Sequence record: PQ850621.1
DNA length: 43,746 nucleotides
From: Escherichia phage NicoleGrasset_Bas72
Strand: one strand, 5' to 3'
The notes under the pieces were generated by a model. The model did not search any database. It saw nothing but the letters and a program-made list of their open reading frames with translations, and had not been told where the DNA came from. The position numbers were made by a program, and so were the translations under genes. This document shows, in pieces, positions 3,313 through 41,802 of the stretch. Within the stretch, counting starts at the first letter, position 1, and each line of letters begins with the position of its first letter.

Positions 3313-3336
3313 ATAGCCCCGAAAGGGGCTTTCTTA
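3313..3336 (+). terminator. hairpin plus short T-tract between portal and head-morphogenesis genes (attenuator-like)
   Basis: AGCCCC gaaa GGGGCT then TTCTT. Confidence 0.35.
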
Positions 3337-4880: not shown

Positions 4881-4909
4881 AAAGGCCCCATTATGGGGCC
4901 TTAGTTTTC
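4881..4909. terminator. rho-independent terminator, likely bidirectional
   Basis: AGGCCCCA tta TGGGGCCT then TAGTTTT; A-run on the other side; between convergent genes. Confidence 0.6.
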
Positions 4910-5111
4910 AACGGAATCTTGTGTTTAAATCCTGCTCATGGACAACCCTCAGAACAGTGTCATAATCCCCGTATCTTCCAGGTTCAAATATATCTAATGC
5001 CTTGTAAGCAGACATTGCGTCAGGGAAAACCTGCAGAACCTTTTTAACCCGGCACAAGTCACCGTCGAACTCTTCATCGAACTCTTGAACTACTTCGCAA
5101 ATTGCATACAT
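4908..5111 (-). CDS. hypothetical protein, 67 aa, acidic
   Basis: ATG with AGGAGGTG SD; sits between bidirectional terminator 4881-4909 and minus-strand promoter 5139-5167. Confidence 0.5.
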   Translation of the reverse strand: MYAICEVVQEFDEEFDGDLCRVKKVLQVFPDAMSAYKALDIFEPGRYGDYDTVLRVVHEQDLNTRFR

Positions 5112-5138
5112 TTTTCACCTCCTGTTTAAGTTAACTGA

Positions 5139-5167
5139 ATAGTACCCTATTATATTGGGGTGTGCAA
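5139..5167 (-). promoter_or_regulatory. promoter, TTGCAC-N17-TACTAT family
   Basis: On minus strand: TTGCAC, 17-nt spacer accccaatataataggg, TACTAT; drives 4908-5111. Confidence 0.55.
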
Positions 5168-5242
5168 ACTATTTATTTACGTATTCCATTTATTCCACTA
5201 AATTGTAAATATTGGAATAAACTATTCGAATAGTTGACTTTT

Positions 5243-5271
5243 CACTGAAAATGTGCTAAGCTCCACCTGAG
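5243..5271 (+). promoter_or_regulatory. promoter candidate TTGACT-N17-TAAGCT overlapped by a 16-bp palindrome
   Basis: -35 TTGACT at 5243-5248, -10 TAAGCT at 5266-5271; palindrome AACTATTCGAATAGTT at 5229-5244 overlaps the -35. Confidence 0.35.
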
Positions 5272-13778: not shown

Positions 13779-14105
13779 CTATTTACTTTCTGCGCCTATC
13801 GCCCACCCTGTCATTACCATTTGCAGACGGGTGGCTGTCAGTAGGCTATAGAAAGCATCTCCGTTTTTCTCTACCGAACGTATCACTGTGTAGGTTACGG
13901 CCTGCGGGGGTAGGCCCGATTTACCAACCTCCACGGCGGCCTCACACTCGCGAACTGTAGAGTCCTTGAACGCCTTTACAATAGTAGGGTCGGCTTTATC
14001 AAGCACACCAGAAGTCATAAGAACAGATTCACTAAATACCTGTTCGCACGGGGCTCCAAAAGTAGCAAAAGACATAAACCCCAGAGCTAATACTAATTTA
14101 CGCAT
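13779..14105 (-). CDS. small secreted protein (signal peptide)
   Basis: N-terminus MRKLVLALGFMSFATFGA is a signal-peptide-like n/h/c region; first gene downstream of promoter 14134-14162. Confidence 0.55.
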   Translation of the reverse strand: MRKLVLALGFMSFATFGAPCEQVFSESVLMTSGVLDKADPTIVKAFKDSTVRECEAAVEVGKSGLPPQAVTYTVIRSVEKNGDAFYSLLTATRLQMVMTGWAIGAESK

Positions 14106-14133
14106 AATTATACCCTCAGTAAGTTACTGGTGA

Positions 14134-14162
14134 ATAGTACCCTATTATATTGGGGCGCGCAA
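14134..14162 (-). promoter_or_regulatory. promoter, TTGCGC-N17-TACTAT family
   Basis: On minus strand: TTGCGC, spacer gccccaatataataggg, TACTAT; drives cassette 13779-14105 onward. Confidence 0.55.
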
Positions 14163-15048: not shown

Positions 15049-17353
15049 TACGGCTTCCCTAATTGCCAGAGTAAAAACAGAAGGCGCTGATGTAGCCGCT
15101 AAACAGCTTGACGCTATGGCGGCATCCGCAGACCGTGCGGACACATCCGTAAACAAACTAACGCCGGATGTTAATAAAGTAAACTCCGCTACGTCTAAAG
15201 CGGCTTCTGACGGTTTCGCTAAATTCCGTAACGCCGCCGGGCAGGTAGGCTTCCAGGTGCAGGACATGGTCGTCCAGTTGCAGTCCGGCACGTCTGCATT
15301 CGTAGCAATCGGGCAACAAGGCTCTCAGCTTGCGGGTGCTTTCGGCCCTGGTGGCGCGGTGCTTGGGGCCGTAATTGCTCTTGCGTCAGCAATCGGTGGT
15401 GTCCTGTATAAATCGTTAACCGAAGCAGAAGGCAGTTCAAAAGACCTCGAAGCCGCACAGAAACAGCTAAAAGATACTTTCCAGCAAACGGCGTCCGGCT
15501 CTCTCGAACTGACAGACGGCCTTATCCAGCTTACCCAAATCAGCAGAGAAGCGGCGGAGACTCAGCTTGCGCTGGCTAAGGCTAACGCGGACCTTATCGC
15601 ACAGCAAACAGCTAAAGCTGTTCGTGAGGACGCAGAATCATGGGAGACATGGAAGGCATCCACAGCATCAGCTATCAGCCAGTACGATGCATTGGCCTCT
15701 AAAGGTGCGGATGTAGGCGACACGTTAGAAAAACTCGGTGGCACTTACGAGGGTAACATCGTAGGCGTCAACATGCTGGCGCAGAATATCGCAGAGCTTA
15801 GCAGTAAGTTTGGGGTTAACCGTGACCAGGCGCTGGAGATGATAGCGGCGCAGAGTGCGTTTAACAAAGAGCCAACCGCCGAGAATGCCCGTCGCATCGC
15901 CGATGTGTTTACCGACTGGCTCGGTAATACAAAACAGTTGAACCCGGAACTTATCCGCCTGACCGACAATGCCAACAAGAACGCCACGGCACTGGAGAAC
16001 GCGGAGAAGTCCGCAAACGCGGCGGCGGAGGCCCAAAAGAATCTTGGTCGTAACGTCAACTCAACAACGCAGAGATTCCAGGAACAGAACGAAGCTATCG
16101 TCAAAAACCAGCAAATCGCTATCTTAAGTGACCGCGAGCGTATCCGTGCGCAAGCTGAACTGGATAAGCAGGCGTTCGCTAAACGTGAAGCTGTCACCAA
16201 AGAACAGATCGCCGCGTATAATGCTGCGCGTGACACGGAAGCACAACAAGACATCGCTCGCATCGACGCTACCGAAAAAGCGAAGGCCGACCGCGAGGCC
16301 AAATCGAACGAGAAACGGCTGGCGGCACAAGCCAAACGCGAAGAAACGGCGGCTGAACGACAGAAAAAAGCGGCGGAAGATTTCCTGGCTACTGTCGACC
16401 GCACAACCGGAGATGAGATTTCGCGCATTACCGCTGCGGAAGAACAGAAACTGGCGAAACTGGAGGAGTTCAACCGCGCCGGAACGATAAGCCAGCAGCA
16501 GTATGAAAACGCCAAAACTCAAATTATGCTCACAGCCGAGCAGGCCAGACAGGAAGAACTGGATAAGAAAAGAAAAGAGCAGCAGGAAAAGCAGCAGAAA
16601 GGCGAGGACTTCATGGCACAGATTATGGGTCAGAACGCTACTGAGCTTGAGCTTCTCGACATCCAGGAACAGCAGAAACTGGAGGTAGCGGATAAGTACC
16701 GTGAGCAGGGGCTTATTAGTGAGAAGCAGTACCAGGCGGCGCTTAACGCCATCAATGAGCAGTATGCTACGAAGCGTGCCGACGCAACGGCAACCGCCTT
16801 CGGTAACATGGCTTCAAACATCGGTTCGGCTTTGGGCGAGGCTTCTGGCGCGTATAAGGCATTCGCTATCGTACAGGCCACTATCGCCACGTACACCGCG
16901 GCTATCGAGGCGTACAAGTCCACAGCGGCTATCCCTGTAGTTGGTCCGTTCCTGGCTCCTGTAGCTGCCGCCGCTGCCGTTGGGGCGGGTATGGCGCAGA
17001 TTTCCGCTATCAGGTCCGCACGTGAACAGGGCGGACAGTTATCAGCCGGGCAGGCTTCCACCATCGCTGAACGTGGTAAACCAGAAGTTATCATGCCCGC
17101 TGGTGCGTCACGTGTACGCACCGCACAGCAGATGAAAGAAATTATGGGGCAAAACGGGTCTTCTTCCGGCCCATCTAATGTTACCATTGTAAATAATACA
17201 TCGAGTCAGATTGGCAACGTATCCACCGAGCAGGATGATGAAGGCCGTCTGCGTATCATCATAGAAGAGCAAGTTGCTGCATCTTTGCAGAACAGCAACA
17301 GTAAGATTAGCAAGGCCCGCAAGGCCACAAGAAACGCGCCGGGGTTTAAATAA
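15041..17353 (+). CDS. tail tape measure protein
   Basis: About 770 aa, highly A/E/K/Q-rich helical protein with low-complexity repeats; position after chaperone pair. Confidence 0.75.
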   Translation: MADTASLIARVKTEGADVAAKQLDAMAASADRADTSVNKLTPDVNKVNSATSKAASDGFAKFRNAAGQVGFQVQDMVVQLQSGTSAFVAIGQQGSQLAGAFGPGGAVLGAVIALASAIGGVLYKSLTEAEGSSKDLEAAQKQLKDTFQQTASGSLELTDGLIQLTQISREAAETQLALAKANADLIAQQTAKAVREDAESWETWKASTASAISQYDALASKGADVGDTLEKLGGTYEGNIVGVNMLAQNIAELSSKFGVNRDQALEMIAAQSAFNKEPTAENARRIADVFTDWLGNTKQLNPELIRLTDNANKNATALENAEKSANAAAEAQKNLGRNVNSTTQRFQEQNEAIVKNQQIAILSDRERIRAQAELDKQAFAKREAVTKEQIAAYNAARDTEAQQDIARIDATEKAKADREAKSNEKRLAAQAKREETAAERQKKAAEDFLATVDRTTGDEISRITAAEEQKLAKLEEFNRAGTISQQQYENAKTQIMLTAEQARQEELDKKRKEQQEKQQKGEDFMAQIMGQNATELELLDIQEQQKLEVADKYREQGLISEKQYQAALNAINEQYATKRADATATAFGNMASNIGSALGEASGAYKAFAIVQATIATYTAAIEAYKSTAAIPVVGPFLAPVAAAAAVGAGMAQISAIRSAREQGGQLSAGQASTIAERGKPEVIMPAGASRVRTAQQMKEIMGQNGSSSGPSNVTIVNNTSSQIGNVSTEQDDEGRLRIIIEEQVAASLQNSNSKISKARKATRNAPGFK

Positions 17354-24484: not shown

Positions 24485-25905
24485 TTCTTACCTCGTCTCT
24501 TCATGTAATTAAGCAACTCTTCCTGTACCGATTTTTTCTCGTCCGTACGCGCGGCAACAACCTCGTCCAGCGTGTCTTTAGCGACGATATGATAGAGGAA
24601 CACCGGGCGCTCGTGTCCCGCCTGTTTCTGGCGGACCGGGCCTATGCGCTCAACAACCTGTAAATAGTGCTCAAGGTTCCACCCTTGCGAAATAAACGCC
24701 AGATGATGTCCGCCGTCCTGTAAATTCAAACCATGACCAGCTGACGCAGGATGCACGCATAAGATCTCAATTTCACCACGGTTCCACGCTTCCATCTGCT
24801 TATTACCCTTAACTCCTTTGGCAAACGCCTGTGCCTGCGGGAATCGCTTAAGGATGCGCTCCAGTTCGTGCTTGAACTGATAAGCCACCAGTAACGGCGC
24901 ACCTTGTAGCTCCTCAACAATTGACTCGAGCGCATCCAGTTTCGTGTCGTGCACTTTCTCCCAGTCTTTGGTTGCTTCTCCGTCGTCACCCGTCACATAC
25001 ACAGCACCGGAAGCAATCTGCAAACACTTAGACGTCTTCGCTGCCGCGTTAGCCGCTTCAACTTCCCCGCTCTCCAGTTCCGCGAATAACTTTTCCTCCA
25101 TATCGATGTACGCCTGACGCGCTTTCTTCGGCAGGTCGATTTCAACAGGTACGATAACCGGCGCTTCGCATCCGAACCACTCAGCGGCGTCAATCGTGAG
25201 ACTGATGTCCTTCATCTTCTGGTGGATTTCAGTATCCGCACCCGGGCGGGCGTGGTATTCGCGCGCCATAGCAGATTTGCCTTTCTGCACCGAGTTAAAC
25301 CAGCGGTCGGTGAATGCCGTGTACGAAGAACCGAGGCGCTCGCCCGCGTCGATAAACCAGTTCTGTCCCCACAAGTCCTTGAGGCCGTTAGGCGATGGTG
25401 TACCTGTCAGGTTGATAAAACGCTTAACCTTTCCGAACGCCACTCTACTAAGCGCCTTCGCCCGCTTGCTGCCGCCTGAACGGCTGCGGAATGACTTCAG
25501 TTTCGTGCTTTCATCGGCAACGATAACGGTAAAAGGCCAGTCGTCTTTGCCGTAGTAGTCAATCAACCACTCTATTACCTCATAGTTCGTGCACACCACG
25601 TTAGCGTCCGACTCCAGCGCCGCGATGCGGCGCTTCTCTGAACCGGTCGCGTCTACGACACGCAGACATGGGAAATTCCACTTAGTTTGTTCCGCCGGCC
25701 ATGTGCCTGATGCAACGCGCAACGGGGCGAGGATTAACACGCGGTCCTCTTCTGTAAGCTGCCCGTTGCGGAACAGTCGGTTTAATGTCCACAGTACGCT
25801 GCCAGTCTTCCCGGCGCCCATGCTCGCCCAAATATTACAGCGATGGTGCCGCAACATGAACGAAGTCATTAGCTTCTGGTATTCGCGCCTTTGAAACTTA
25901 CTCAT
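24481..25905 (-). CDS. SNF2/DEAD-like helicase
   Basis: Walker A MGAGKTGS, DExx box VIVADESTKLK, helicase C-terminal region. Confidence 0.7.
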   Translation of the reverse strand: MSKFQRREYQKLMTSFMLRHHRCNIWASMGAGKTGSVLWTLNRLFRNGQLTEEDRVLILAPLRVASGTWPAEQTKWNFPCLRVVDATGSEKRRIAALESDANVVCTNYEVIEWLIDYYGKDDWPFTVIVADESTKLKSFRSRSGGSKRAKALSRVAFGKVKRFINLTGTPSPNGLKDLWGQNWFIDAGERLGSSYTAFTDRWFNSVQKGKSAMAREYHARPGADTEIHQKMKDISLTIDAAEWFGCEAPVIVPVEIDLPKKARQAYIDMEEKLFAELESGEVEAANAAAKTSKCLQIASGAVYVTGDDGEATKDWEKVHDTKLDALESIVEELQGAPLLVAYQFKHELERILKRFPQAQAFAKGVKGNKQMEAWNRGEIEILCVHPASAGHGLNLQDGGHHLAFISQGWNLEHYLQVVERIGPVRQKQAGHERPVFLYHIVAKDTLDEVVAARTDEKKSVQEELLNYMKRRGKK

Positions 25906-26692
25906 TTACGGCCCCCATGAACGCCTTTATAAATTCAGCGGCTACTTGCGGGACGATAGCATTGCCGTAACCGCGCAATCGTCCCACTCTGGCGGGTACC
26001 CCATTAGCCAGCGGGAATGTGCTGGGTTCAACTGGCCTGAATTTTCCATCCCGGCATCCGAGCCAGTCAGCATCTGACCAGAACCCGTTAGGCGGATTGG
26101 CTGTGTCAGAGATGCCTCTGTTTGCAGATTGTGGCCCCCGTTCCTGCCCTGATGGCCTGCTCCCGCCGAGTTGTTCGCACACGGTGTTGGCCAGTTGCTG
26201 CGCTCCGAAGAACAATCGATTCCTTTTGTGCGGTGCGCCGACGCTACAAGCTGGGAGTACGGCAAACCCGACGGCGTAGTCTTCTCTTTCCAGGTGAGTT
26301 TGTAAATCGCACATCCACGATTTTGCAATTGCTGCCGCAACCTGCTCCCCAAAGATGACTGGAGGGTGGCACTCGCTGATGAGGTCGAGGAGCACAGGTG
26401 CGAGGTGTCTCTGGTCGAACTGTCCGAGTTGCTTTCCTGCCGTGCTAAACGGTTGGCAAGGCGGACTTCCCGTCCATATAGGCGTATCTTCAGAAACTCC
26501 CGCAAGTCTGAGCGCGAGAGGCCAGCCGCCGATACCCGCGAAAAAATGACACTGGGTGAACCCGTCAAGGTCTTCTGGCTTAACTTCGGTAATGCTTCTT
26601 TCATCTACAACTCCAAAAGGTATGTGACCCTGTTTTATCAACTCACGCAGCCACGCGGCTGCGCCTTTATCCCATTCATTGTAATAGTTCAT
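25898..26692 (-). CDS. compact C5-cytosine DNA methyltransferase
   Basis: Motif I FFAGIGG, motif [11 protein letters not shown] (catalytic PCQ), motif VIII-like KRNRLFF, motif X-like [11 protein letters not shown]; only 264 aa, so the target recognition region is short. Confidence 0.7.
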
Positions 26693-26910: not shown

Positions 26911-27198
26911 TTAACTATAATAGCCCGCTATTAGGTCGTCAACCTGTTTAAACGAACCAACGACAAAAACATTTGCACCACGTTTACGCATCCGCTCGTG
27001 CTCTCGTAACTGGTGCGGGTCCGGCTTCGTGTTTTCGTCTTTCTTAACCTCGACGAACCAGATGATGCCACCAGGGAGAATTACCAGCAGGTCGGGGGCG
27101 CCGGAGCGCCCCTCATAAGACAGCTTACGAACGAGGCCACCAATGGCCTCGAATCGCTCTTTTGCGTATTTCTGCACGCGCCCCTCAGGCGTACTCAT
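26911..27198 (-). CDS. VRR-NUC domain nuclease (PD-(D/E)xK)
   Basis: 95 aa; GAPDLLVI...VEVKK pattern matches the D...E-x-K core of VRR-NUC; GAGGGG SD. Confidence 0.6.
   Translation of the reverse strand: MSTPEGRVQKYAKERFEAIGGLVRKLSYEGRSGAPDLLVILPGGIIWFVEVKKDENTKPDPHQLREHERMRKRGANVFVVGSFKQVDDLIAGYYS
26914..26942 (-). promoter_or_regulatory. sigma70-like promoter TTGACG-N17-TATAGT
   Basis: On minus strand; within the 3' end of the VRR-NUC gene; upstream of 26689-26880 and the methyltransferase. Confidence 0.5.
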
Positions 27199-27279: not shown

Positions 27280-27411
27280 TCATTCCAGCACCCACAGATA
27301 AATTGCGATGAACATGCCCAATATGGCAACCATCATGCCGTATTGACCCTCGTGACAGTAGACACCGGCAGCAAATCCCGCCAGTACCGCGATAATCAGT
27401 TTACTTGGCAT
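27280..27411 (-). CDS. small hydrophobic membrane peptide (43 aa), putative
   Basis: AAGGAG SD 9 nt upstream; MPSKLIIAVLAGFAAGVYCHEGQYGMMVAILGMFIAIYLWVLE; not in ORF track. Confidence 0.35.
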   Translation of the reverse strand: MPSKLIIAVLAGFAAGVYCHEGQYGMMVAILGMFIAIYLWVLE

Positions 27412-28096
27412 CTCTACATTCTCCTTCAGGCCACCTATTAGGAAAAGACGGTATATGTGAAACTTCTCTCGCCGCTTTTATTCTTTTAATGGCGGGACCT
27501 ATCTCCGTAACCATTTCAATGAATGTAAACCGGTGTCCTCTGGTAAGATTACATGTCTGACAACAAGAAACGCAGTTAGATACTATGTGCCCGCTTGTAT
27601 TATCTATGCGGTCTACCCCGACTTTTGTAGTGCTTCCGCAATAATGGCATGGCTGTGATATTAGTTTAATAACGCTTTCCAGTGTTAAATCGCAGATAAG
27701 CCCTTTTCCTGAATCTGCTCTTTTGTATCCTAACAAAAGCGCGTACGCCCGCGTCCTTTGGTCCTTATTCACCAGTTCCCTGCGTTGCTTGTTGAGACAC
27801 TCCCGGCAATCTTTCCTGATATGAGAGCCATTACTTTTATTTCCTTTCCTGAAGTTTTCCTCTGTTAAAGGTTTTACCTCCCCACACTTTCTGCATTTAA
27901 CAGGCTTCCCAGTGAAAACATACCAAGGGCTTTCTCGTCTGGATTTACCTTGTAATTTAAGTTTTTCGTCATACTTTTCCTTCCTGTTAGCATTTACACA
28001 CTCTTTACACCAGCGTTGCAGCCCGAGGCGCGTTGACTTTGAAAAATACTCTGTAGTCGCCGGTTTATCTTCGCCGCATCTTGAACACTTTTTCAT
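27401..28096 (-). CDS. HNH endonuclease with N-terminal zinc-binding Cys pairs
   Basis: CxxC pairs (CSRCG, CKEC, CRKCG) and HNH core HYCGSTTKVGVDRIDNTSGHIVSNCVSCCQTCN; ATG at 28096 with GGAG SD. Confidence 0.7.
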   Translation of the reverse strand: MKKCSRCGEDKPATTEYFSKSTRLGLQRWCKECVNANRKEKYDEKLKLQGKSRRESPWYVFTGKPVKCRKCGEVKPLTEENFRKGNKSNGSHIRKDCRECLNKQRRELVNKDQRTRAYALLLGYKRADSGKGLICDLTLESVIKLISQPCHYCGSTTKVGVDRIDNTSGHIVSNCVSCCQTCNLTRGHRFTFIEMVTEIGPAIKRIKAAREVSHIPSFPNRWPEGECRDAK

Positions 28097-28106
28097 TAAT
28101 AACTCC

Positions 28107-28141
28107 AAAAAAAAATACCGACATAGCCATTATATCGGTAT
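28107..28141 (-). terminator. rho-independent terminator (minus strand) between DNA polymerase and HNH genes
   Basis: On minus strand: stem ATACCGA/TCGGTAT with 13-nt loop, followed by a 9-nt U-run. Confidence 0.6.
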
Positions 28142-31245: not shown

Positions 31246-31274
31246 ACTATAATAGCTAACTATTCAGGTGTCAA
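31246..31274 (-). promoter_or_regulatory. sigma70-like promoter TTGACA-N17-TATAGT
   Basis: On minus strand; partly within the 3' end of 31260-31463; upstream of DUF2815-like gene. Confidence 0.55.
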
Positions 31275-31463: not shown

Positions 31464-32740
31464 TCCAAATCCTCCTCTGTTACCTGATTCCACTCAGGAC
31501 GTTTGTCGTCTGCCGTTGCGACACATGGTGCGCCTGGCTTACGGGTAATGAAGTCTTTCAGTTCTTCTTCCGGTATGACTTTAACAGCTTCGGTAGGTGA
31601 CATGAGCACTTCTTTAGTCAGCTTGTCGCCGTAGAGTTCTGTTACTTTCTCCGCGTCTTTCCATGCACGATTACCCGGGCGGCCTTCAACCAACTTGTAA
31701 CCAGGAACTTTCTTACCTGAATGCAACGCGGCCGCCATAGCTTTCTCAACCTTGTCGATGTGCTGGCGCAACAGCGGCAACTTCTCATACTCAGCTACGA
31801 GTTGCTCCGGCGTCAGTTCCAGCACAAAGTCGTCTTCCAGTTCTTCCGCCAGTACAGAATTAACCGTCTTTGTACGCGCAGCGCATTGTTCAGAGAACCG
31901 GCACCACTGACAACCATCTACCGATGGCTTGAAGTCCGACGCTTTCAGGTTCTTCTTGCCACGGAAATACGCATCAAGCGCTAACAGCGCGCGTTTCTGT
32001 GCGAACTTAGCGAACAGTTCCAGTCCTTCAACCGAGATGTCCCACTCTGTCGCGCCCCCAGCGTAAGGCTGGAAGATGACCAGACGAACGGTTGTTATGT
32101 TATAACGTCTCTTGAGTCGACGATAAACACCGAGAGCGTAAAGCATAAGCTGCTTGTTTTCTTTCGCTTCGACGCGATGCCGTCCTGTTTTAAGGTCGCC
32201 GATAATGAGCATCGCGGAGTTACTTTCACCTGTAAAGCCTTCTATAACCGCCACTAAGTCGGCTGTCCCGAATGTCTCTAAATCATCCTCCTTACCTTCT
32301 TCACTCTCAGCAGGTACTTTGTAGCCCGGATGCAATACCTCAGTAAGATTGACACGCATTTCCAGCTTGGCGTAAGTCGCTACATCGATAATCGCTTTGC
32401 AGTAGTCGGTGTACTTGCGAACCTGTTCAATCATGTCAGCCGTAATCAGTACCGCGCCTTTCATAGGGCTGATTAACGCCTTAATCTGGCCTTTTCCTTC
32501 GTCCAGTACATAAGCGCCGACTTCACGTTCTAATGGCAACGCAGTGCCTTTGATGTACTGGTTAAGGTGTATCTCGGCTATGGTGTGCATTGCCGTGCCT
32601 AATATCGCAGCTTTACCGGACGTGTCAGGAATATCCTTTTCACAGGCCAGTGATGCGGCGCAGGTTAACCACTTTTTAGCACCTGACGGTGACAGTAAGG
32701 CGTGTACGTCGTTATTGCCGCCGCGTTCTTTTAGAATCAT
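31460..32740 (-). CDS. DUF2800-like PD-(D/E)xK (Cas4-like) nuclease
   Basis: N-terminal HALLSPSGAKKWLTCAAS signature; C-terminal Cys cluster VDGCQWCRFSEQCAAR consistent with Fe-S Cas4-like nucleases; ends with VTEEDLE. Confidence 0.6.
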   Translation of the reverse strand: MILKERGGNNDVHALLSPSGAKKWLTCAASLACEKDIPDTSGKAAILGTAMHTIAEIHLNQYIKGTALPLEREVGAYVLDEGKGQIKALISPMKGAVLITADMIEQVRKYTDYCKAIIDVATYAKLEMRVNLTEVLHPGYKVPAESEEGKEDDLETFGTADLVAVIEGFTGESNSAMLIIGDLKTGRHRVEAKENKQLMLYALGVYRRLKRRYNITTVRLVIFQPYAGGATEWDISVEGLELFAKFAQKRALLALDAYFRGKKNLKASDFKPSVDGCQWCRFSEQCAARTKTVNSVLAEELEDDFVLELTPEQLVAEYEKLPLLRQHIDKVEKAMAAALHSGKKVPGYKLVEGRPGNRAWKDAEKVTELYGDKLTKEVLMSPTEAVKVIPEEELKDFITRKPGAPCVATADDKRPEWNQVTEEDLE

Positions 32741-33099
32741 CGTAAACTCTCCAAATACAAGTTTAATGCCTGTAGCTGTTCTTCTGTGGGGATGAAAGAA
32801 TCATCACGATGTAAGTCGCTTAACTGTTGCAGCATTCCTGCGAACTTACGTCTTGCGTCAACAGTGGCCATGTGATGCTTTTCGCTTTTGTATATTAATG
32901 TTTTCGGGTAATCCTCAAGTCTTCCAGACGATTTATTCACGCGGAGTGCTCGAGCTTCATGCGCAATGTGGATGTACTTTTTGCCGTTTTGTAGCACAGT
33001 AGCTACGCCGCTGTTCTTTCTGCGGTCACCGACGGTGTAAACCTTGTCACCACTACGCAGATTAAGCCACCATTTATCCGTCATACCCGGTTCTCCCAC
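32737..33099 (-). CDS. hypothetical protein (120 aa)
   Basis: Co-oriented, overlapping start/stop in early-left operon. Confidence 0.45.
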   Translation of the reverse strand: MGEPGMTDKWWLNLRSGDKVYTVGDRRKNSGVATVLQNGKKYIHIAHEARALRVNKSSGRLEDYPKTLIYKSEKHHMATVDARRKFAGMLQQLSDLHRDDSFIPTEEQLQALNLYLESLR

Positions 33100-33353
33100 T
33101 GGTCAATTAAATGTCGTGTCTTGTGGTCACAATGCATCGCCCAGCTATACATCGACTCGAAGACATAAAAGTCACTTTTAACGAATGTCGTGCGCTTAAT
33201 CTGCGACAGGTGACGGCCTATATCTTTCGGCTTCGGTACTTTGCCGAGGTAGGCCATCTCTTCCATCTGGTGCGCGCCGGACGGCGCACGCAACAGCCAC
33301 AACGCCTCTGTGTTATCCCGTCGGTCAATACCTCGGTAGAGTTGGTAAATCAT
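33081..33353 (-). CDS. hypothetical protein (90 aa)
   Basis: Co-oriented ORF in early-left operon. Confidence 0.45.
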   Translation of the reverse strand: MIYQLYRGIDRRDNTEALWLLRAPSGAHQMEEMAYLGKVPKPKDIGRHLSQIKRTTFVKSDFYVFESMYSWAMHCDHKTRHLIDQWENRV

Positions 33354-33396
33354 ATTACGACCCTCTGTTAAAGCGGCCCGGAGGCCGCCAGATAAA

Positions 33397-33897
33397 TTAT
33401 TCTTCTTCGAAATACTTGTTCTTAATCGCCGTCAGGCGTTTCAGGTATTCAGCCAGGTCTTCGTCTTTAATCGCGGCAATCTTCATTTTCTTACCGGTGA
33501 ACTCCTCCAGCAGTTCATCGGAATCGTCGCACGCAGCATCGCTAGGACCTTCGTTAATTGCATCGTCGATAGCCTGAATCTGGTCACGAAGAGACTGGTA
33601 ATCGACCTCTTCTTTCTCTTCTTCTGGTTCTGGAGTCGGCTCCTCTACTTTAGCTTTACGCGGCTTGCGTTTCGGCTTCTCTTCTTCTGCTGGTTTAGCG
33701 TCAACGATGTCTTCACCTTCAACAGGGATTTCTTTTGTTGCTTCTTTTTCGCACTCAGCTACCGCTTCTTTGGTATACACTACCGTCTCTACTTCTAACG
33801 GCGCTGCAACTTGTGCTGACTGTTTCGCACTGTTCGCAGCAATCAGTTCATGTGCAACTACGAAACGTTCCAGTAATTTTAAGAATTGTTCTAACAT
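33397..33897 (-). CDS. highly acidic protein, first gene of early-left operon
   Basis: GAGGAGAG SD; E/D-rich (EPTPEPEEEKEEVDYQ, DDSDELLEEF); directly downstream of strong promoter 33929-33957. Confidence 0.55.
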   Translation of the reverse strand: MLEQFLKLLERFVVAHELIAANSAKQSAQVAAPLEVETVVYTKEAVAECEKEATKEIPVEGEDIVDAKPAEEEKPKRKPRKAKVEEPTPEPEEEKEEVDYQSLRDQIQAIDDAINEGPSDAACDDSDELLEEFTGKKMKIAAIKDEDLAEYLKRLTAIKNKYFEEE

Positions 33898-33928
33898 TTG
33901 TTTCTCTCCTCTCGTTTGGTATGGGCTA

Positions 33929-33957
33929 ACTATAATAGCGAACTATTCACATGTCAA
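33929..33957 (-). promoter_or_regulatory. sigma70-like promoter TTGACA-N17-TATAGT
   Basis: On minus strand; upstream of acidic-protein gene 33397-33897. Confidence 0.6.
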
Positions 33958-33961
33958 TGGG

Positions 33962-33990
33962 CTTTTCTAAAATAATTAATATGGTACTAT
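33962..33990 (+). promoter_or_regulatory. weak promoter candidate for HTH regulator gene
   Basis: TACTAT -10 at 33985-33990 with AT-rich upstream region; -35 poor (CTTTTC). Confidence 0.3.
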
Positions 33991-34021
33991 TCACATATCA
34001 ACTGACTAAGGAGTAATTGAC

Positions 34022-34237
34022 ATGCGACCATCTGAACTAGGCATCCGTGTAGAACAACGCCGCAAAGAACTCGGCATCTCCCAGCGCCGTTTGGCGGCCC
34101 TGACCGGCGTTTCCCAGGGCGCGATTAACCAACTGGCACTTGGAGTAACTCAGGACGTCCGCCCGGCAACGCTGTTCAAACTGGCGGAAGTTCTGGAAGT
34201 AGACGCCAAGTGGCTGGCGTTAGGTGAAGGGGCTTAA
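34022..34237 (+). CDS. XRE-family HTH transcriptional regulator (Cro/CI-like)
   Basis: 71 aa; classic HTH LGISQRRLAALTGVSQGAINQL; AAGGAG SD; own terminator 34227-34252. Confidence 0.7.
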   Translation: MRPSELGIRVEQRRKELGISQRRLAALTGVSQGAINQLALGVTQDVRPATLFKLAEVLEVDAKWLALGEGA

Positions 34238-34252
34238 AGCCCCTTTCTTTTT
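34227..34252 (+). terminator. rho-independent terminator after HTH regulator gene
   Basis: GGGGC ttaaa GCCCC then TTTCTTTTT. Confidence 0.6.
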
Positions 34253-34254
34253 AC

Positions 34255-36489
34255 CTATTCCAAATCCTCCTCTGTCACCACCAGCATCTCATTTGGTTCG
34301 TATAGTGTCTTCGGCCTTAATCTATCCCCTATTCTTTCGGGTATACGATATGTTCTCGGTACTACTTCGCCGTTAGCATCGCAACCAAGCATTAGTTCTC
34401 CATCTTTCAACATTTTATCAAGATGGGTGTTAGTCACAGAGAAGTCACCGGAACGAGCCACTATCTGCTGCTGAGTAAAACCGCGACCTGTGTCATCTGA
34501 CTGTTGCAGGTCTTCCAGTGCCGAAAGTATTGACTCCTTCCTTACTTCATCCCTGCCGCGTTTAACTTCTTCCTTTACTTTTTGCTTACCTTCTTTCGTC
34601 AACCCTTCTTCCCGCTCTTTCTCCTCGTCAGTTTTGAACGGCTCGAAACCCCACGGCATCAACACAAGCGCCTTGTGTGGTTCAGGAAGGTCCAGGTTTA
34701 CGATTGTGCCGTATTCTTCTGTGCCCCCCAGGAACTCAACCGCACGGTACTCTTTCGGCGGCGGAGCTTCGCGGAACTGCACAGACTCCAGCACCATGCC
34801 AACCGTTTTCTGTTGAGGACCGTGCTTAAATTTCGAGTGGTATACGTTTATTTGACGGTCGGTTGCACGTTCGATTGTCAGTTCCACGTCAACACCCGCA
34901 TACAGCGCCCCACTGCCGCGTGCTTTCTTTCCACCCTTCGGCGTATGGTGGACAACGCCTACTGCGGCTTTAGTTGCATCGCGTACTTCTTTCAGAATGG
35001 CGATAACTTTACCCATGCCGATTGCTGTTGATGAACTGTTCTCGTCGAACTTATCAATCGTCAGTGCCAGGGTCTGGTTAAGGGTGTCGAACGCAACCAT
35101 GCCAATTGGCTCGTCGCCAGCAGTTTCGCGCATTAACTTAATCAGGCTTTTAAGTTTGCCGACTTCGCCCATATCGATGACGTGTACATAATCTTTACCT
35201 TCCCCGCCATATTTAGCCGCTAGTGCATCAATACGGGTGCGTGTAGCTGCGCCACCCTCACCATCAATATAGAAATGGTGGCAACGCTGGGTATCCGCCC
35301 CCGCAAACCTGTACCCGGCGGCGCTGAGGTACATCATCCCCAGCGTATAGAACGATTTGTACGTGCCAGATTCCCCGACGATATCCCAGATACAATCCGA
35401 CGGCATGTACCCCTCAACGACGAAATCAGCCTTTACCGGCTCCGGTAACTCGTCCCCCTCTGAGTCCTCCTCTGAGTCCTCGTCGTCTTCCAGGTCGTCG
35501 AGGCTGCAAGTTACTGGGTCCTCGTTCTCTGTGCGGTGTAGTTCTTCAATCTCTTCTTCCGGTAAATCAGGCAGAGCCGCACGAATGCTGTTAATGCTGA
35601 TAGGTTGCTTGTCTACGTTAAGCTCGTCTGGCAGGCCGCACATACGCAGGGCCAAATGCTGTCGGCGGTTAAGCTCGGTGCAAGCGCCGTTGTTTGTATG
35701 CTGGCAGACAAAGCGCACTTCTTTACCGTCGAGCATTATGCTGGTGGAGCCCTTGCCTGTATGCAGATGTTCGTTAGGGCATGGCACTTCGTACCCGCGC
35801 CCGGAAGATAAAGCGTCAAGGCCAAGCTCGGCTTCGCAGAAGTGTGCTATATCCGCGTTAAGCCCATGCTCATCAGCGGCAAGTGTTTTAGCCTCACGCT
35901 TACGCAACCCCATCTCTTCGGCTTTCTTGATGTACCGCTCGGCACGGATAACACGCCCTTCTGTAACCGTTATCTTCGACTCTTTGTGCGGCAGGTAGAT
36001 AAGGCGGTTGCCATCTTCCGTGCAGTGGTCGCGCAACGCTTCGTCTATTTCTAACTCTGCACAAATAGCACGTTGCACCATCCACGCGTCGTTAGAGTTA
36101 AACGGCGTGCGAGCTGGAACCAGAACGCGGAAAGCGTAATCTCCGTTTTTACACACATGCTGATGCGATGCCGTTGTATGCAGAATATTGAAGAACGGTG
36201 CGTTCTTGAATTTGCGGGTAAGGTCGCGGTACTGAGTACGGTTGAGATGGTCAAAATCGAACTTAACCACACTGTCTTCCAGAATAGCGTTCTTACGGCG
36301 ACCGCCAACAGGCGCAATAGCTTTCTGTTTAATCTTGGCCGCGTCGTACTCTTCCTTAGTCCATGACGGGTCCACGGATAAACGCTTCGATGTATCGCAG
36401 ACATACTCCACAAACTGCTCGAGCGGCATCTCACGCGCTACAGGGTTTTTATCGAATGTGTTACGCAGCGTTGCAAAAACAATATTCAT
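34255..36489 (-). CDS. primase-helicase (N-terminal primase-like region, C-terminal RecA-like ATPase)
   Basis: Walker A GESGTYKS in C-terminal half; 744 aa; position in replication module; ends with VTEEDLE. Confidence 0.6.
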   Translation of the reverse strand: MNIVFATLRNTFDKNPVAREMPLEQFVEYVCDTSKRLSVDPSWTKEEYDAAKIKQKAIAPVGGRRKNAILEDSVVKFDFDHLNRTQYRDLTRKFKNAPFFNILHTTASHQHVCKNGDYAFRVLVPARTPFNSNDAWMVQRAICAELEIDEALRDHCTEDGNRLIYLPHKESKITVTEGRVIRAERYIKKAEEMGLRKREAKTLAADEHGLNADIAHFCEAELGLDALSSGRGYEVPCPNEHLHTGKGSTSIMLDGKEVRFVCQHTNNGACTELNRRQHLALRMCGLPDELNVDKQPISINSIRAALPDLPEEEIEELHRTENEDPVTCSLDDLEDDEDSEEDSEGDELPEPVKADFVVEGYMPSDCIWDIVGESGTYKSFYTLGMMYLSAAGYRFAGADTQRCHHFYIDGEGGAATRTRIDALAAKYGGEGKDYVHVIDMGEVGKLKSLIKLMRETAGDEPIGMVAFDTLNQTLALTIDKFDENSSSTAIGMGKVIAILKEVRDATKAAVGVVHHTPKGGKKARGSGALYAGVDVELTIERATDRQINVYHSKFKHGPQQKTVGMVLESVQFREAPPPKEYRAVEFLGGTEEYGTIVNLDLPEPHKALVLMPWGFEPFKTDEEKEREEGLTKEGKQKVKEEVKRGRDEVRKESILSALEDLQQSDDTGRGFTQQQIVARSGDFSVTNTHLDKMLKDGELMLGCDANGEVVPRTYRIPERIGDRLRPKTLYEPNEMLVVTEEDLE

Positions 36490-36614
36490 TTCTTTTTCTC
36501 CGCACGTTCTAAGGCTTCCTGCATACGGCGCATTGCGCGGTTCATCTTTACCGGTGCGAAGAAGTCAGCGCCGTGTTTCTGGCGGCGTAGCTGTGGAACT
36601 ATTAACTTTGTCAT
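36486..36614 (-). CDS. small basic peptide (42 aa), putative
   Basis: Stop overlaps primase ATG (ATGA); MTKLIVPQLRRQKHGADFFAPVKMNRAMRRMQEALERAEKKK; not in ORF track. Confidence 0.3.
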   Translation of the reverse strand: MTKLIVPQLRRQKHGADFFAPVKMNRAMRRMQEALERAEKKK

Positions 36615-36653
36615 TGTATAATCCTTATGCTTACTTTGATGATTTGTACTTTA

Positions 36654-36686
36654 GCCCCGACGTTCTGGCGTTGGGGTTTCTTTTTA
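36654..36686 (+). terminator. plus-strand terminator-like hairpin inside minus-strand operon
   Basis: CCCCGACG ttctgg CGTTGGGG (one G-U pair) then TTTCTTTTT. Confidence 0.4.
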
Positions 36687-36974
36687 CCGTTTAGCCAACC
36701 CTTCCAGCAAATTTTTATACTCTTCAAAATATTCCTCGACCAAATCATCGCCGAAATAGAAGTCGATATACTCGAGATTATCTCTTACGTTAAGCGATGC
36801 CGACATGGTGCTTAGTTGGCGTAAGCTAATTAGCTTCATTTCTGTTTCTACGCAGAAAGGCCGGTAGGTATCAAGATGGCAAGAGATATTGAAGCATAAA
36901 GCGAACTCTCCGGCCACGGAGTGAACCATATACACTTCGTTTTCTGCTTTATTGTGGAAAATTACGCCTTTCAT
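36684..36974 (-). CDS. hypothetical protein (96 aa)
   Basis: Co-oriented ORF; overlaps upstream gene stop. Confidence 0.45.
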   Translation of the reverse strand: MKGVIFHNKAENEVYMVHSVAGEFALCFNISCHLDTYRPFCVETEMKLISLRQLSTMSASLNVRDNLEYIDFYFGDDLVEEYFEEYKNLLEGLAKR

Positions 36975-37155
36975 TTCACGTTCTCCTTAATCCATGCTTC
37001 GACTTTATTACGGTCAAATGTTCCCGGTAAACGGCGGCCCATAACCTTAATACAGCAGTCAGGGAATTTGCCGCTGCGCAACCAGTTATTAATGGTCTGA
37101 CGTGTCACCCCGATACGCTCGGCTACCTCATTCTGTGTCATGTAATGTTGCATTT
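36971..37155 (-). CDS. small HTH DNA-binding protein (AlpA/excisionase-like fold), start at internal ATG
   Basis: HTH MTQNEVAERIGVTRQTINNWL; ATG at 37155 with AGGGGA SD; track ORF extends to 37267 but upstream part lacks SD. Confidence 0.55.
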
Positions 37156-37250
37156 TTATATCCCCTGTTTGTTTAGTGAAACCGAGTATAGGATAGCGGG
37201 AATGTAAAAGCAACCAACCCCTGCAATATTTAATCTTTACAAAAAAGTTA

Positions 37251-37280
37251 TTGAAAGTTCTTGACACATGTTTGTATAAT
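37251..37280 (+). promoter_or_regulatory. sigma70-like promoter candidate TTGAAA-N18-TATAAT
   Basis: In divergent control region; would transcribe through palindrome 37307-37347 toward hairpin 37482-37510. Confidence 0.35.
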
Positions 37281-37306
37281 GGTTTTGGGACTTGTATATA
37301 TATTAC

Positions 37307-37347
37307 GGAGTTGACGAACCCTCCCCGAGGGATTCGTCAACCCCTCC
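37307..37347. promoter_or_regulatory. long imperfect palindrome (operator or RNA stem candidate)
   Basis: GTTGACGAACCCTC ... GAGGGATTCGTCAAC, arms about 14 bp with a short central spacer and one bulge. Confidence 0.4.
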
Positions 37348-37481
37348 CAGACAGCTGAGATGCTTGCCTTGTGGTTTAAGGATAAGTGTATCTAAATCTC
37401 ATTTAAAGAAGTAACCCGCTGAAATATCTACTGTTTCTTAATGTGCCGTAGATTCGCAACCGTAAAAATGTAACGATTATT

Positions 37482-37510
37482 GGGCAGGCTTAGGGCCTGC
37501 CCTTTAGTTA
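37482..37510 (+). terminator. terminator-like hairpin in divergent control region
   Basis: GGGCAGGC ttagg GCCTGCCC then TTTAGTT. Confidence 0.4.
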
Positions 37511-37574
37511 CCAAGTAATAAGAATAAAGGCACAACAGTTTCGAAAGAATCACAACGGCAACGTAACTATTCTC

Positions 37575-37603
37575 TTGCACACCCCAACATAATAGGATAC
37601 TAT
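37575..37603 (+). promoter_or_regulatory. promoter, TTGCAC-N17-TACTAT family
   Basis: TTGCAC, spacer accccaacataatagga, TACTAT; about 35 nt upstream of gene at 37638. Confidence 0.55.
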
Positions 37604-37637
37604 TCACTTATCGAAACGAGACAGAGGAGTGAGGGTT

Positions 37638-37829
37638 ATGTTTAAGAAGGGTCAGTTGGTTAAAACTAAACGCGGAGGGCAATATGTATTAGTGTTGCAG
37701 GACGAGAGCGAGTATGACGAGGATAATCTGGTTGACGTATGGGGTCTGGTAAGAAAGAAAACTGGGTTCGCCTCCCGCGATAATTTAGAACTCATCGGCA
37801 ACAATTTTAAATTCAAAGGGACGAAGTGA
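37638..37829 (+). CDS. small early protein
   Basis: GAGGAG SD 8 nt before ATG 37638; downstream of promoter 37575-37603. Confidence 0.5.
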   Translation: MFKKGQLVKTKRGGQYVLVLQDESEYDEDNLVDVWGLVRKKTGFASRDNLELIGNNFKFKGTK

Positions 37830-38748: not shown

Positions 38749-38777
38749 TTGCACACTAATATAGAATAGGCTACTAT
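38749..38777 (+). promoter_or_regulatory. promoter, TTGCAC-N17-TACTAT family
   Basis: TTGCAC, spacer actaatatagaataggc, TACTAT; upstream of 38809. Confidence 0.5.
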
Positions 38778-38808
38778 TCATTTACACAAACGAGAGGAGA
38801 GACAGAAT

Positions 38809-41752: not shown

Positions 41753-41773
41753 TCTATTTTCTGCAATGACTAG

Positions 41774-41802
41774 TTGACTATTACCTACGACCCTATTATA
41801 TT
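41774..41802 (+). promoter_or_regulatory. sigma70-like promoter TTGACT-N17-TATATT
   Basis: Canonical spacing; follows terminator 41720-41752; precedes 41836. Confidence 0.55.

Follow-up and report, generated by a model that had tools for sequence, protein, structure and literature searches.

A 71-aa helix-turn-helix (HTH) protein of Escherichia phage NicoleGrasset_Bas72 (PQ850621.1) is rather likely to be a Cro-like, autoregulated repressor that acts genome-wide through a 14-bp inverted repeat embedded in promoters of this lytic phage. Such a protein would probably time lytic transcription rather than set up lysogeny. The window analyzed here is the whole 43,746-nucleotide stretch of that record. 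Because its first gene encodes the terminase, as in phage LotteLoewe_Bas71, and because it matches the Bas71 map gene for gene, the window is a complete Kagunavirus genome (∼43.7 kb). The region from 33000 to 37500 is 96 to 99% identical to that of Kagunavirus (Guernseyvirinae) Escherichia phages such as LotteLoewe_Bas71 and 590B.

The initial annotation had recognized a 71-aa Cro/CI-type XRE-family HTH gene from the letters of the sequence, and this assignment was borne out. The product of the open reading frame at 34022..34237 on the plus strand matched Pfam family HTH_3 (PF01381) over profile positions 2 to 55 of 55, with a score of 49.7 bits (cutoff, 23; E=3.9e-13). The best PDB sequence matches, aligned from end to end, were 434 Cro and the N-terminal domain of the 434 repressor; P22 C2, HipB, and HigA scored lower. 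A single-sequence AF2 model (pLDDT, 81.7) predicted a compact, all-helical 434-Cro-like fold, in which DSSP merged helices 4 and 5. Foldseek matched the model to HipB, 434 Cro, the 434 repressor, P22 c2, and SinR (probability, 1.00; TM, 0.6 to 0.69), C proteins were also among the fold matches, and the rmsd to 434 Cro was 1.7 Å over 54 columns. The recognition helix, as aligned on 434, reads S31-Q-G-A-I-N-Q37. By these comparisons, the protein is a member of the XRE/HTH_3 family, with 434 Cro as its closest known relative.

The gene was matched in 536 phage records in a tblastn search, ∼470 of which were Guernseyvirinae, and a similar number of records was obtained with the major capsid gene, so that its spread in the subfamily is about the same. 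The 35 distinct Kagunavirus alleles contained no internal stop codons, had a pN/pS of 0.12, and were invariant at residues 31 to 38 except for two states at G33. As judged from these alleles, the gene is evidently real, functional, and maintained under purifying selection rather than being a chance open reading frame, and its distribution marks it as a core gene of the Guernseyvirinae. It is named repressor, DicA, or cro in some GenBank records and is missed altogether by some annotation pipelines. For example, the Bas71 record (PQ850615) omits it and carries in its place a 31-aa open reading frame on the opposite strand (32664-32759), the counterpart of which lies at 34037..34132 on the minus strand of the window. 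In RNA-seq of the Kagunavirus K1B4, the orthologue (gene 004) was transcribed and was placed in the middle class of a coarse classification (PMC12645636). This assignment fits a weak, delayed promoter.

A weak promoter and a terminator of its own had been attributed to the gene within positions 33962 to 34252, and candidates for both were found. The match from the consensus scan, promoter candidate (i), begins 16 nt to the left of that interval. Its −35 box abuts the −35 box of the strong leftward early promoter P_L and differs among relatives at positions 5 and 6. When the Jerseyvirus orthologue is aligned, candidate (ii) falls on a TTGCGT-17-TACTAT promoter, and the TGn-TACTAT element of candidate (ii) is present in 36 of 36 distinct Kagunavirus sequences. 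The ribosome-binding site AAGGAG is kept upstream of the orthologues in Kaguna-, Jersey-, and Cornellvirus. At the 3′ end of the gene, a hairpin at 34226-34246 (dG, −17.7 kcal/mol; z=−3.4) is followed by CTTTTT, and a terminator-like hairpin likewise lies 3′ of the orthologue in the Cornellvirus-type phage VSiA. Since the minus-strand reading of the hairpin has no U-tract, leftward transcription of the helicase-primase operon may run antisense through the HTH gene.

Coordinates of genes, candidate operators, and predicted transcription signals in the window (IR, inverted repeat AATAG-N4-CTATT)
Feature	Position	Strand	Basis or associated repeat
71-aa HTH_3 (434-Cro-like) gene	34022..34237	+	ORF, Pfam, structure model, allele comparison
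AAGGAG ribosome-binding site, 8 nt 5′ of ATG	34008..34013	+	Read from sequence
HTH-gene promoter candidate (i), TTCACA-16-TAAAAT, 10/12	33946..33973	+	Consensus scan
HTH-gene promoter candidate (ii), extended −10 TGgTACTAT, without good −35	33982..33990	+	Read from sequence
Intrinsic terminator, 9-bp stem and T-run	34226..34256	+	Overlaps HTH stop codon
Candidate leftward early promoter P_L, TTGACA-17-TATAGT, 11/12, for 33397..33897 and nuclease genes	33929..33957	-	Consensus scan
IR1 AATAGCGAACTATT, perfect candidate operator in P_L spacer	33934..33947	.	Repeat scan
IR2 AATATGGTACTATT, one-mismatch (AATAT) candidate operator over −10 and TSS region of HTH gene	33978..33991	.	Repeat scan
Promoter TTGACA-17-TATAGT for SSB/DNA polymerase genes	31246..31274	-	Perfect IR 31251-31264 in spacer
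Promoter TTGACG-17-TATAGT	26914..26942	-	Perfect IR 26919-26932 in spacer
Early-right promoter TTGCAC-17-TACTAT, operon from ∼37629-37638	37575..37604	+	Perfect IR 37591-37604 over −10
Second rightward early promoter, TTGC(A/G)C-17-TACTAT type	38749..38778	+	Perfect IR 38765-38778 over −10
Leftward promoter TTGCAC-17-TACTAT for small gene 4908..5111	5138..5167	-	Perfect IR 5138-5151 over −10
Leftward promoter TTGCGC-17-TACTAT for 13779..14105	14133..14162	-	Perfect IR 14133-14146 over −10
Promoter TTGACT-17-TATATT ahead of late-region genes	41769..41802	+	One-mismatch IR 41769-41782 over −35
Promoter TTGACT-17-TAAGCT ahead of late-region genes	5229..5262	+	One-mismatch IR 5229-5242 over −35
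60-aa HTH_17 (excisionase/MerR-like) protein, first helicase-primase operon gene	36971..37153	-	Pfam

The intergenic region upstream of the HTH gene contains a 25-nt direct repeat with a spacing of 44 bp, the conserved core of which is the palindrome AATAG-N4-CTATT. Two copies of the palindrome (IR1 and IR2; centers 44 bp apart) lie between the gene and the divergent promoter. In an unbiased scan that covered every 5- or 6-mer inverted repeat having a spacer of 0 to 12, this palindrome ranked first in the genome, with 7 perfect copies versus 0.04 expected. With up to one mismatch allowed, there were 12 copies (7 perfect and 5 with one mismatch) versus a mean of 1.05, and none of 100 shuffles reached 12. 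Ten of the 12 copies are in promoter-like regions, oriented with the downstream genes. The other two have one mismatch each: the copy at 36316 is inside the helicase gene and is probably a chance match, and the copy at 3335, located in a short gap between genes, has no promoter. The position of the repeat relative to the −35 box varies: it lies 4, 7, or 10 nt away or over the box itself. Because the register differs in this way, the repeat is an element separate from the polymerase contacts. The TTGCAC/TACTAT promoters match the sigma-70 consensus at only 7 of 12 positions. Two leftward promoters, at 5138 and 14133, serve small genes embedded in the structural module, and the site at 41769 has counterparts at syntenic positions in Jersey (40891) and Cornell (40827).

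The initial annotation suggested that the HTH protein may regulate the flanking promoters rather than lysogeny. Half of that suggestion gained ground, because candidate operators are present in the adjacent P_L as well as in the promoter of the gene itself; the restriction to flanking promoters did not, as sites are found at ∼10 promoters throughout the genome. For the primase-helicase side, the suggestion gained no backing: no convincing repeat-bearing promoter was found for that operon, and the sole candidate promoter found for it and its HTH_17 gene (TTGCTT-17-TATACT, 37213..37185) does not have the repeat. Two palindromes had also been proposed as binding targets. The first, at 5229-5244, belongs to the operator family as an imperfect copy, but the other is an unrelated hairpin (37307-37347) with a 14-bp stem (dG, −24 on the plus strand and −28 on the minus strand). 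A 16-mer direct repeat, ACTATTCACATRTCAA, consisting of two abutting −35 boxes, was considered as an operator and rejected because its CACAT part varies in relatives; the conserved unit within that region is the AATAG/CTATT palindrome.

Two further features of the repeat-bearing sites were observed. A promoter cassette of ∼32 bp, TTGC(A/G)C(A/G)CCCCAA(T/C)ATAATAGG(G/A)TACTATTCA, is highly identical at 5138-5167, 14133-14162, and 37575-37604; a fourth copy, at 38749-38778, retains only the TTGCAC and AATAGG..TACTATTCA parts. Two of the cassette copies drive leftward small genes within the rightward structural module, against late transcription. An everted perfect palindrome at 5222-5233 (CTATTCGAATAG), in which these half-sites point outward, directly adjoins the imperfect copy at 5229-5242.

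The repeat is conserved in related phages. In a set of 36 distinct Kagunavirus sequences, conservation extended to the half-sites and to both the −10 and the −35 box, while variation, indels included, was seen in the central N4 and in the stretch that separates the repeat from the −35 box. The Jerseyvirus Ent1 has four perfect copies of TAATAG-N4-CTATTA along with imperfect copies at syntenic promoters. No strict copies were found in the Cornellvirus-type phages VSiA and SE1, but the idea that Cornellvirus lacks the repeat altogether did not survive relaxed and de novo scans: each genome has, at syntenic positions, six perfect copies of TAWTA-N6-TAWTA (0 to 0.2 expected), a form that differs from the palindrome in that the inner G/C is relaxed. 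All six are intergenic in SE1; in VSiA, five are intergenic and the sixth is at the annotated 5′ end of a small coding sequence. In Ent1, the copy at 15735-15748 coincides with overlapping divergent promoters (TTGACG-17-TATTAA on the plus strand and TTGCAT-17-TATTAT on the minus strand), and a single dimer there could silence both directions.

We infer that the repeat is bound by the 71-aa protein, with repression as the outcome. A dimer would bind the 14-bp AATAG-N4-CTATT site within the spacer, −10 box, or −35 box of ∼10 sigma-70-type promoters and occlude RNA polymerase. The perfect IR1, in the strong P_L back to back with the HTH gene, would be occupied first. The imperfect IR2, over the TACTAT −10 box and the expected start of promoter (i), would provide autorepression at higher concentrations. 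With a perfect site in the strong P_L and an imperfect site over the gene's own weak promoter, the protein would be expected to accumulate slowly. Early and middle transcription would be shut down or tuned throughout the genome, and the protein's own synthesis would then be limited. Relative to the expected start of promoter (i), IR1 is centered ∼40 bp upstream; lambda CI acts from such a position when it activates PRM, so that self-activation is also conceivable.

Taken together, the weak promoter, the middle expression class, and the genome-wide sites suggest that early, middle, and antisense promoters are turned off progressively. It is possible, but considerably more tentative, that the protein is a master timer, with graded operators in nearly every promoter used by the host polymerase and a single-factor temporal program that operates across the Guernseyvirinae. 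According to this extended proposal, perfect operators would mark the early-left, early-right, and structural-module antisense promoters, and imperfect operators would mark the protein's own promoter and the promoters ahead of late genes. A rising protein level would switch the promoter classes off in order, and IR1 might activate the protein's own promoter.

Which protein occupies the repeat is central to these proposals, and on balance the 71-aa protein is favored. It is the only recognizable sequence-specific binder present in all three genera. In VSiA and SE1, the HTH_17 gene is missing, while the 71-aa gene and the degenerate repeat, at syntenic promoters, are both kept. Covariation between recognition helix and repeat across the three genera was ambiguous. 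The Jerseyvirus orthologue (46 to 48% identity) has the helix SQSLITH, which differs from that of Kagunavirus and is closer to the Cornellvirus helix TQSAISH, yet Jerseyvirus uses the same repeat as Kagunavirus.

More distant homologues were informative. Among 28 IMG/VR loci outside the Guernseyvirinae, all 6 with a helix of the form [ST]QG[ALT]I[GST]Q had one to three perfect AWTAG-N4/5-CTAWT repeats within 170 bp upstream (for example, ATTAGCTTCCTAAT, ATTAGCAGGCTAAT, and AATAGCAAATCTATT), and these repeats sit between divergent CI- and Cro-like genes in prophage switch regions. The same repeat was found upstream in none of the 22 loci with other recognition helices. At locus L057, the divergent Cro-like partner, as read from the DNA, also has TQGAISQ. 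A broad genome scan for Q-G-x-I-x-Q proteins yielded one clear new positive, L090, with three sites, whereas the motif was absent at L089 and L092 (QGLIGQ and QGTIGQ) and at actinobacterial QGLISQ proteins; the negatives were mostly distant proteins from high-GC genomes. These exceptions indicate that the association of helix and operator is not universal, and the positive loci may share ancestry, in which case they represent fewer independent observations than loci. Nevertheless, this operator type is associated with the Q-G-x-I-x-Q type of recognition helix.

Another phage protein might bind the repeat instead, most likely the early 60-aa HTH_17 protein, in which case the target of the 71-aa protein would be a different or more restricted one, such as its own region alone or a gene of the host. 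This alternative seems unlikely but deserves consideration. The Kaguna- and Jerseyvirus versions of the HTH_17 protein are 82 to 86% identical, the repeat is exactly the same in the two genera, and such conservation would suit a common operator; the 71-aa protein is only ∼47% identical between these genera, with the change in the recognition helix described above. Furthermore, the candidate promoter of the HTH_17 gene itself is free of the repeat. However, small excisionase/MerR-like winged-helix proteins usually recognize direct repeats or need a dimerization helix, and this binding habit counts against the HTH_17 protein as the binder. A 14-bp palindrome with an uncontacted center has the geometry of 434 and P22 operators, and in unrelated prophages, operators of this type go together with Q-G-x-I-x-Q XRE proteins. 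The retention of the degenerate repeat at syntenic promoters in the two Cornellvirus-type genomes without the HTH_17 gene also argues against this alternative. On the other side, the HTH_17 gene is among only four early genes in K1B4 (PMC12645636).

It is improbable that the repeat is intrinsic to the promoters, in the form of mirrored −10-like elements or bidirectional cores, or is the site of a host factor, with the HTH gene a leftover of a temperate ancestor that has little regulatory role. The half-sites do resemble −10 hexamers (TATTAT and TACTAT), and because a −10-like sequence is frequently matched by one of the two halves, the promoters themselves could account for some of the signal; at least one Jerseyvirus site (15735), with its two overlapping divergent promoters, and the failure, which went unnoticed, to call the HTH gene in the Bas71 annotation could be read in the same way. 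However, most sites have a −35 box on one side only, the half-site in the spacer is conserved while adjacent spacer bases vary, and the distance from the repeat to the −35 box differs among promoters. The same motif occurs upstream of related HTH genes in other hosts, and a gene that is near-universal in the subfamily, with the low pN/pS given above, does not have the appearance of a leftover.

The isolated orientation of the 71-aa gene has a simple explanation. It had been described as a lone plus-strand gene, and indeed no other plus-strand gene lies in the minus-strand block between 24165 and 37607. In VSiA and SE1, the orthologue is at the same divergent junction, and the helicase-primase gene (34354-37005 in VSiA) comes next on the same strand, with no HTH_17 gene. 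The helicase-primase module of Kaguna- and Jerseyvirus is inverted relative to that of Cornellvirus and has the HTH_17 gene at its head. The lone orientation thus results from the inversion of the helicase module, and the gene itself is an ancient, independent unit located where the early promoters diverge.

An absence of any integrase or repressor-sized partner had also been noted from the open reading frames, and further searches agreed. Pfam scans of 19 open reading frames (the neighbors and the unassigned larger frames) revealed no integrase and no CI-sized repressor, and neither is present in the annotations of the ∼98% identical phages Bas71 and 590B or in those of Ent1 and VSiA. The divergent neighbor encodes an acidic 166-aa protein with no Pfam family, rather than a repressor with an oligomerization or S24 domain. 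The only sign of an excision module in the scanned frames was the 60-aa "excisionase-like" HTH_17 protein. There is no adjacent cotranscribed toxin gene, as the HTH unit is monocistronic and bounded by the terminator and the convergent helicase gene. No restriction-modification operon was found beside the HTH gene; the nearest methylase gene (25898..26692) does not have an endonuclease partner nearby. The 71-aa gene therefore lacks the defining features of a lysogeny switch, of the antitoxin of a toxin-antitoxin pair, and of a restriction-modification controller.

There is very little likelihood that the protein is a true immunity repressor that permits a carrier state, pseudolysogeny, or superinfection immunity even without an integrase. 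Several GenBank records do call the gene repressor or DicA, and with sites in most promoters, silencing of the entire genome is conceivable in principle. However, the 71-aa protein is devoid of any domain for oligomerization or autocleavage, the Pfam-scanned frames and the Bas71 annotation yielded no genes for an integrase, for partition, or for plasmid maintenance, and Guernseyvirinae are treated as strictly lytic, which also weighs against immunity. Furthermore, the BASEL paper, in which Kagunaviruses were isolated and phenotyped via plaque efficiency, does not report lysogeny for the genus (PMC11990801).

Several other features of the genomes were noted. The gene for the very acidic 166-aa protein (33397-33897, minus strand) is the first gene of the leftward early operon; its product belongs to PHROG 3127, to which no function has been assigned, is conserved in all three genera, and is labeled "13.88 kDa late protein" in some records. 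Two minus-strand genes are absent from the Bas71 map: 32737-33099, whose 120-aa product falls just short of the cutoff for the phage ProQ C-terminal-like domain (26.5 bits; cutoff, 27), and 27401-28108, which encodes a 235-aa protein of no family. The HTH_17 operon and the rightward operon are separated by a gap of 474 bp (37154-37627), which holds the hairpin mentioned above, a strong promoter-like sequence on the plus strand (TTGAAA-18-TATAAT, 37251-37280, 11/12), and a plus-strand terminator at 37482-37502. This gap could encode a noncoding RNA of ∼230 nt, antisense to two annotated tiny open reading frames, or could be an origin region; Rfam had no match in the window, this gap included. 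Downstream of the helicase-primase gene in VSiA (37006-37295), there are G-rich repeats (GGGGGAGA-like units) and two copies of GTGAATAGTTAT, which look like replication-origin iterons.

The HTH gene is annotated in many records, but the set of promoter-embedded operators and its link to the gene were not found in the searchable literature. No description was found there of these promoters or of the function of the 71-aa protein, and one coarse Kagunavirus transcriptome was the only relevant paper found (PMC12645636); the timing of transcription in Kagunaviruses and Jerseyviruses was not addressed in the literature found. These phages are among those most frequently isolated for therapy and biocontrol, and they are small engineering chassis. 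If the 71-aa protein controls ∼10 promoters through one 14-bp site, then this control would offer a simple handle with which to tune or silence the phages, would supply defined promoter-operator parts for engineering, and would explain why "repressor" genes in these phages pose no lysogeny risk.

The closest known counterpart is phage 434. Its Cro protein (PDB 2CRO/3CRO) has the same length, 71 aa, and, like the N-terminal domain of the 434 repressor, the same HTH_3 fold, with ∼37 to 40% identity in the aligned core. The 434 operator is ACAA-N6-TTGT, and the candidate operator resembles it in being 14 bp long with conserved outer half-sites and a variable center. The two differ in the recognition helix (QGAINQ here versus QQSIQL in 434) and in the half-site, which is AATAG here. 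Furthermore, the Bas72 gene has neither a CI partner nor a triplet of OR1-3 sites, and its sites lie over ∼10 promoters of a lytic phage. P22 C2, matched by the 71-aa protein in PDB entries 2R1J and 3JXB, is similar in another respect. P22 operators have four uncontacted central base pairs between ...AAG and CTT..., a geometry that AATAG-N4-CTATT shares. However, P22 C2 is a two-domain lysogeny repressor, whereas the 71-aa protein is a DNA-binding domain alone.

The many copies of one site throughout the genome recall mycobacteriophage L5, in which the repressor gp71 has multiple copies of one site, the "stoperators," across the phage genome. The stoperators are asymmetric, are located inside transcription units, and serve to silence the prophage, whereas the candidate sites described here are palindromic and lie inside the promoter cores of a lytic phage. 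Lambda Cro offers a likeness in lytic growth that is one of function rather than family: it too is a small repressor from a divergent early region, and the 71-aa protein is proposed to act similarly by lowering the early promoters and its own. Lambda Cro has a different fold and only two operator regions. The telomere phages PY54 and N15 are reported to have a Cro-type lytic repressor, a likeness in an enterobacterial siphophage, but that Cro is encoded within a CI/Cro immunity region and has a single operator site (PMC4488713).

The candidate operators upstream of the HTH gene also recall the arrangement of C proteins, which are small XRE dimers and structural matches to the 71-aa protein. 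The gene for a C protein is preceded by one strong operator and one weak one, and its expression is thereby delayed and self-limiting. Unlike C proteins, the 71-aa protein has no adjacent restriction-modification pair, and the phage methylase gene is 7 kb away. With IR1 near −40 of promoter (i) and IR2 over its start, however, the two sites would allow the 71-aa protein to follow a similar logic.
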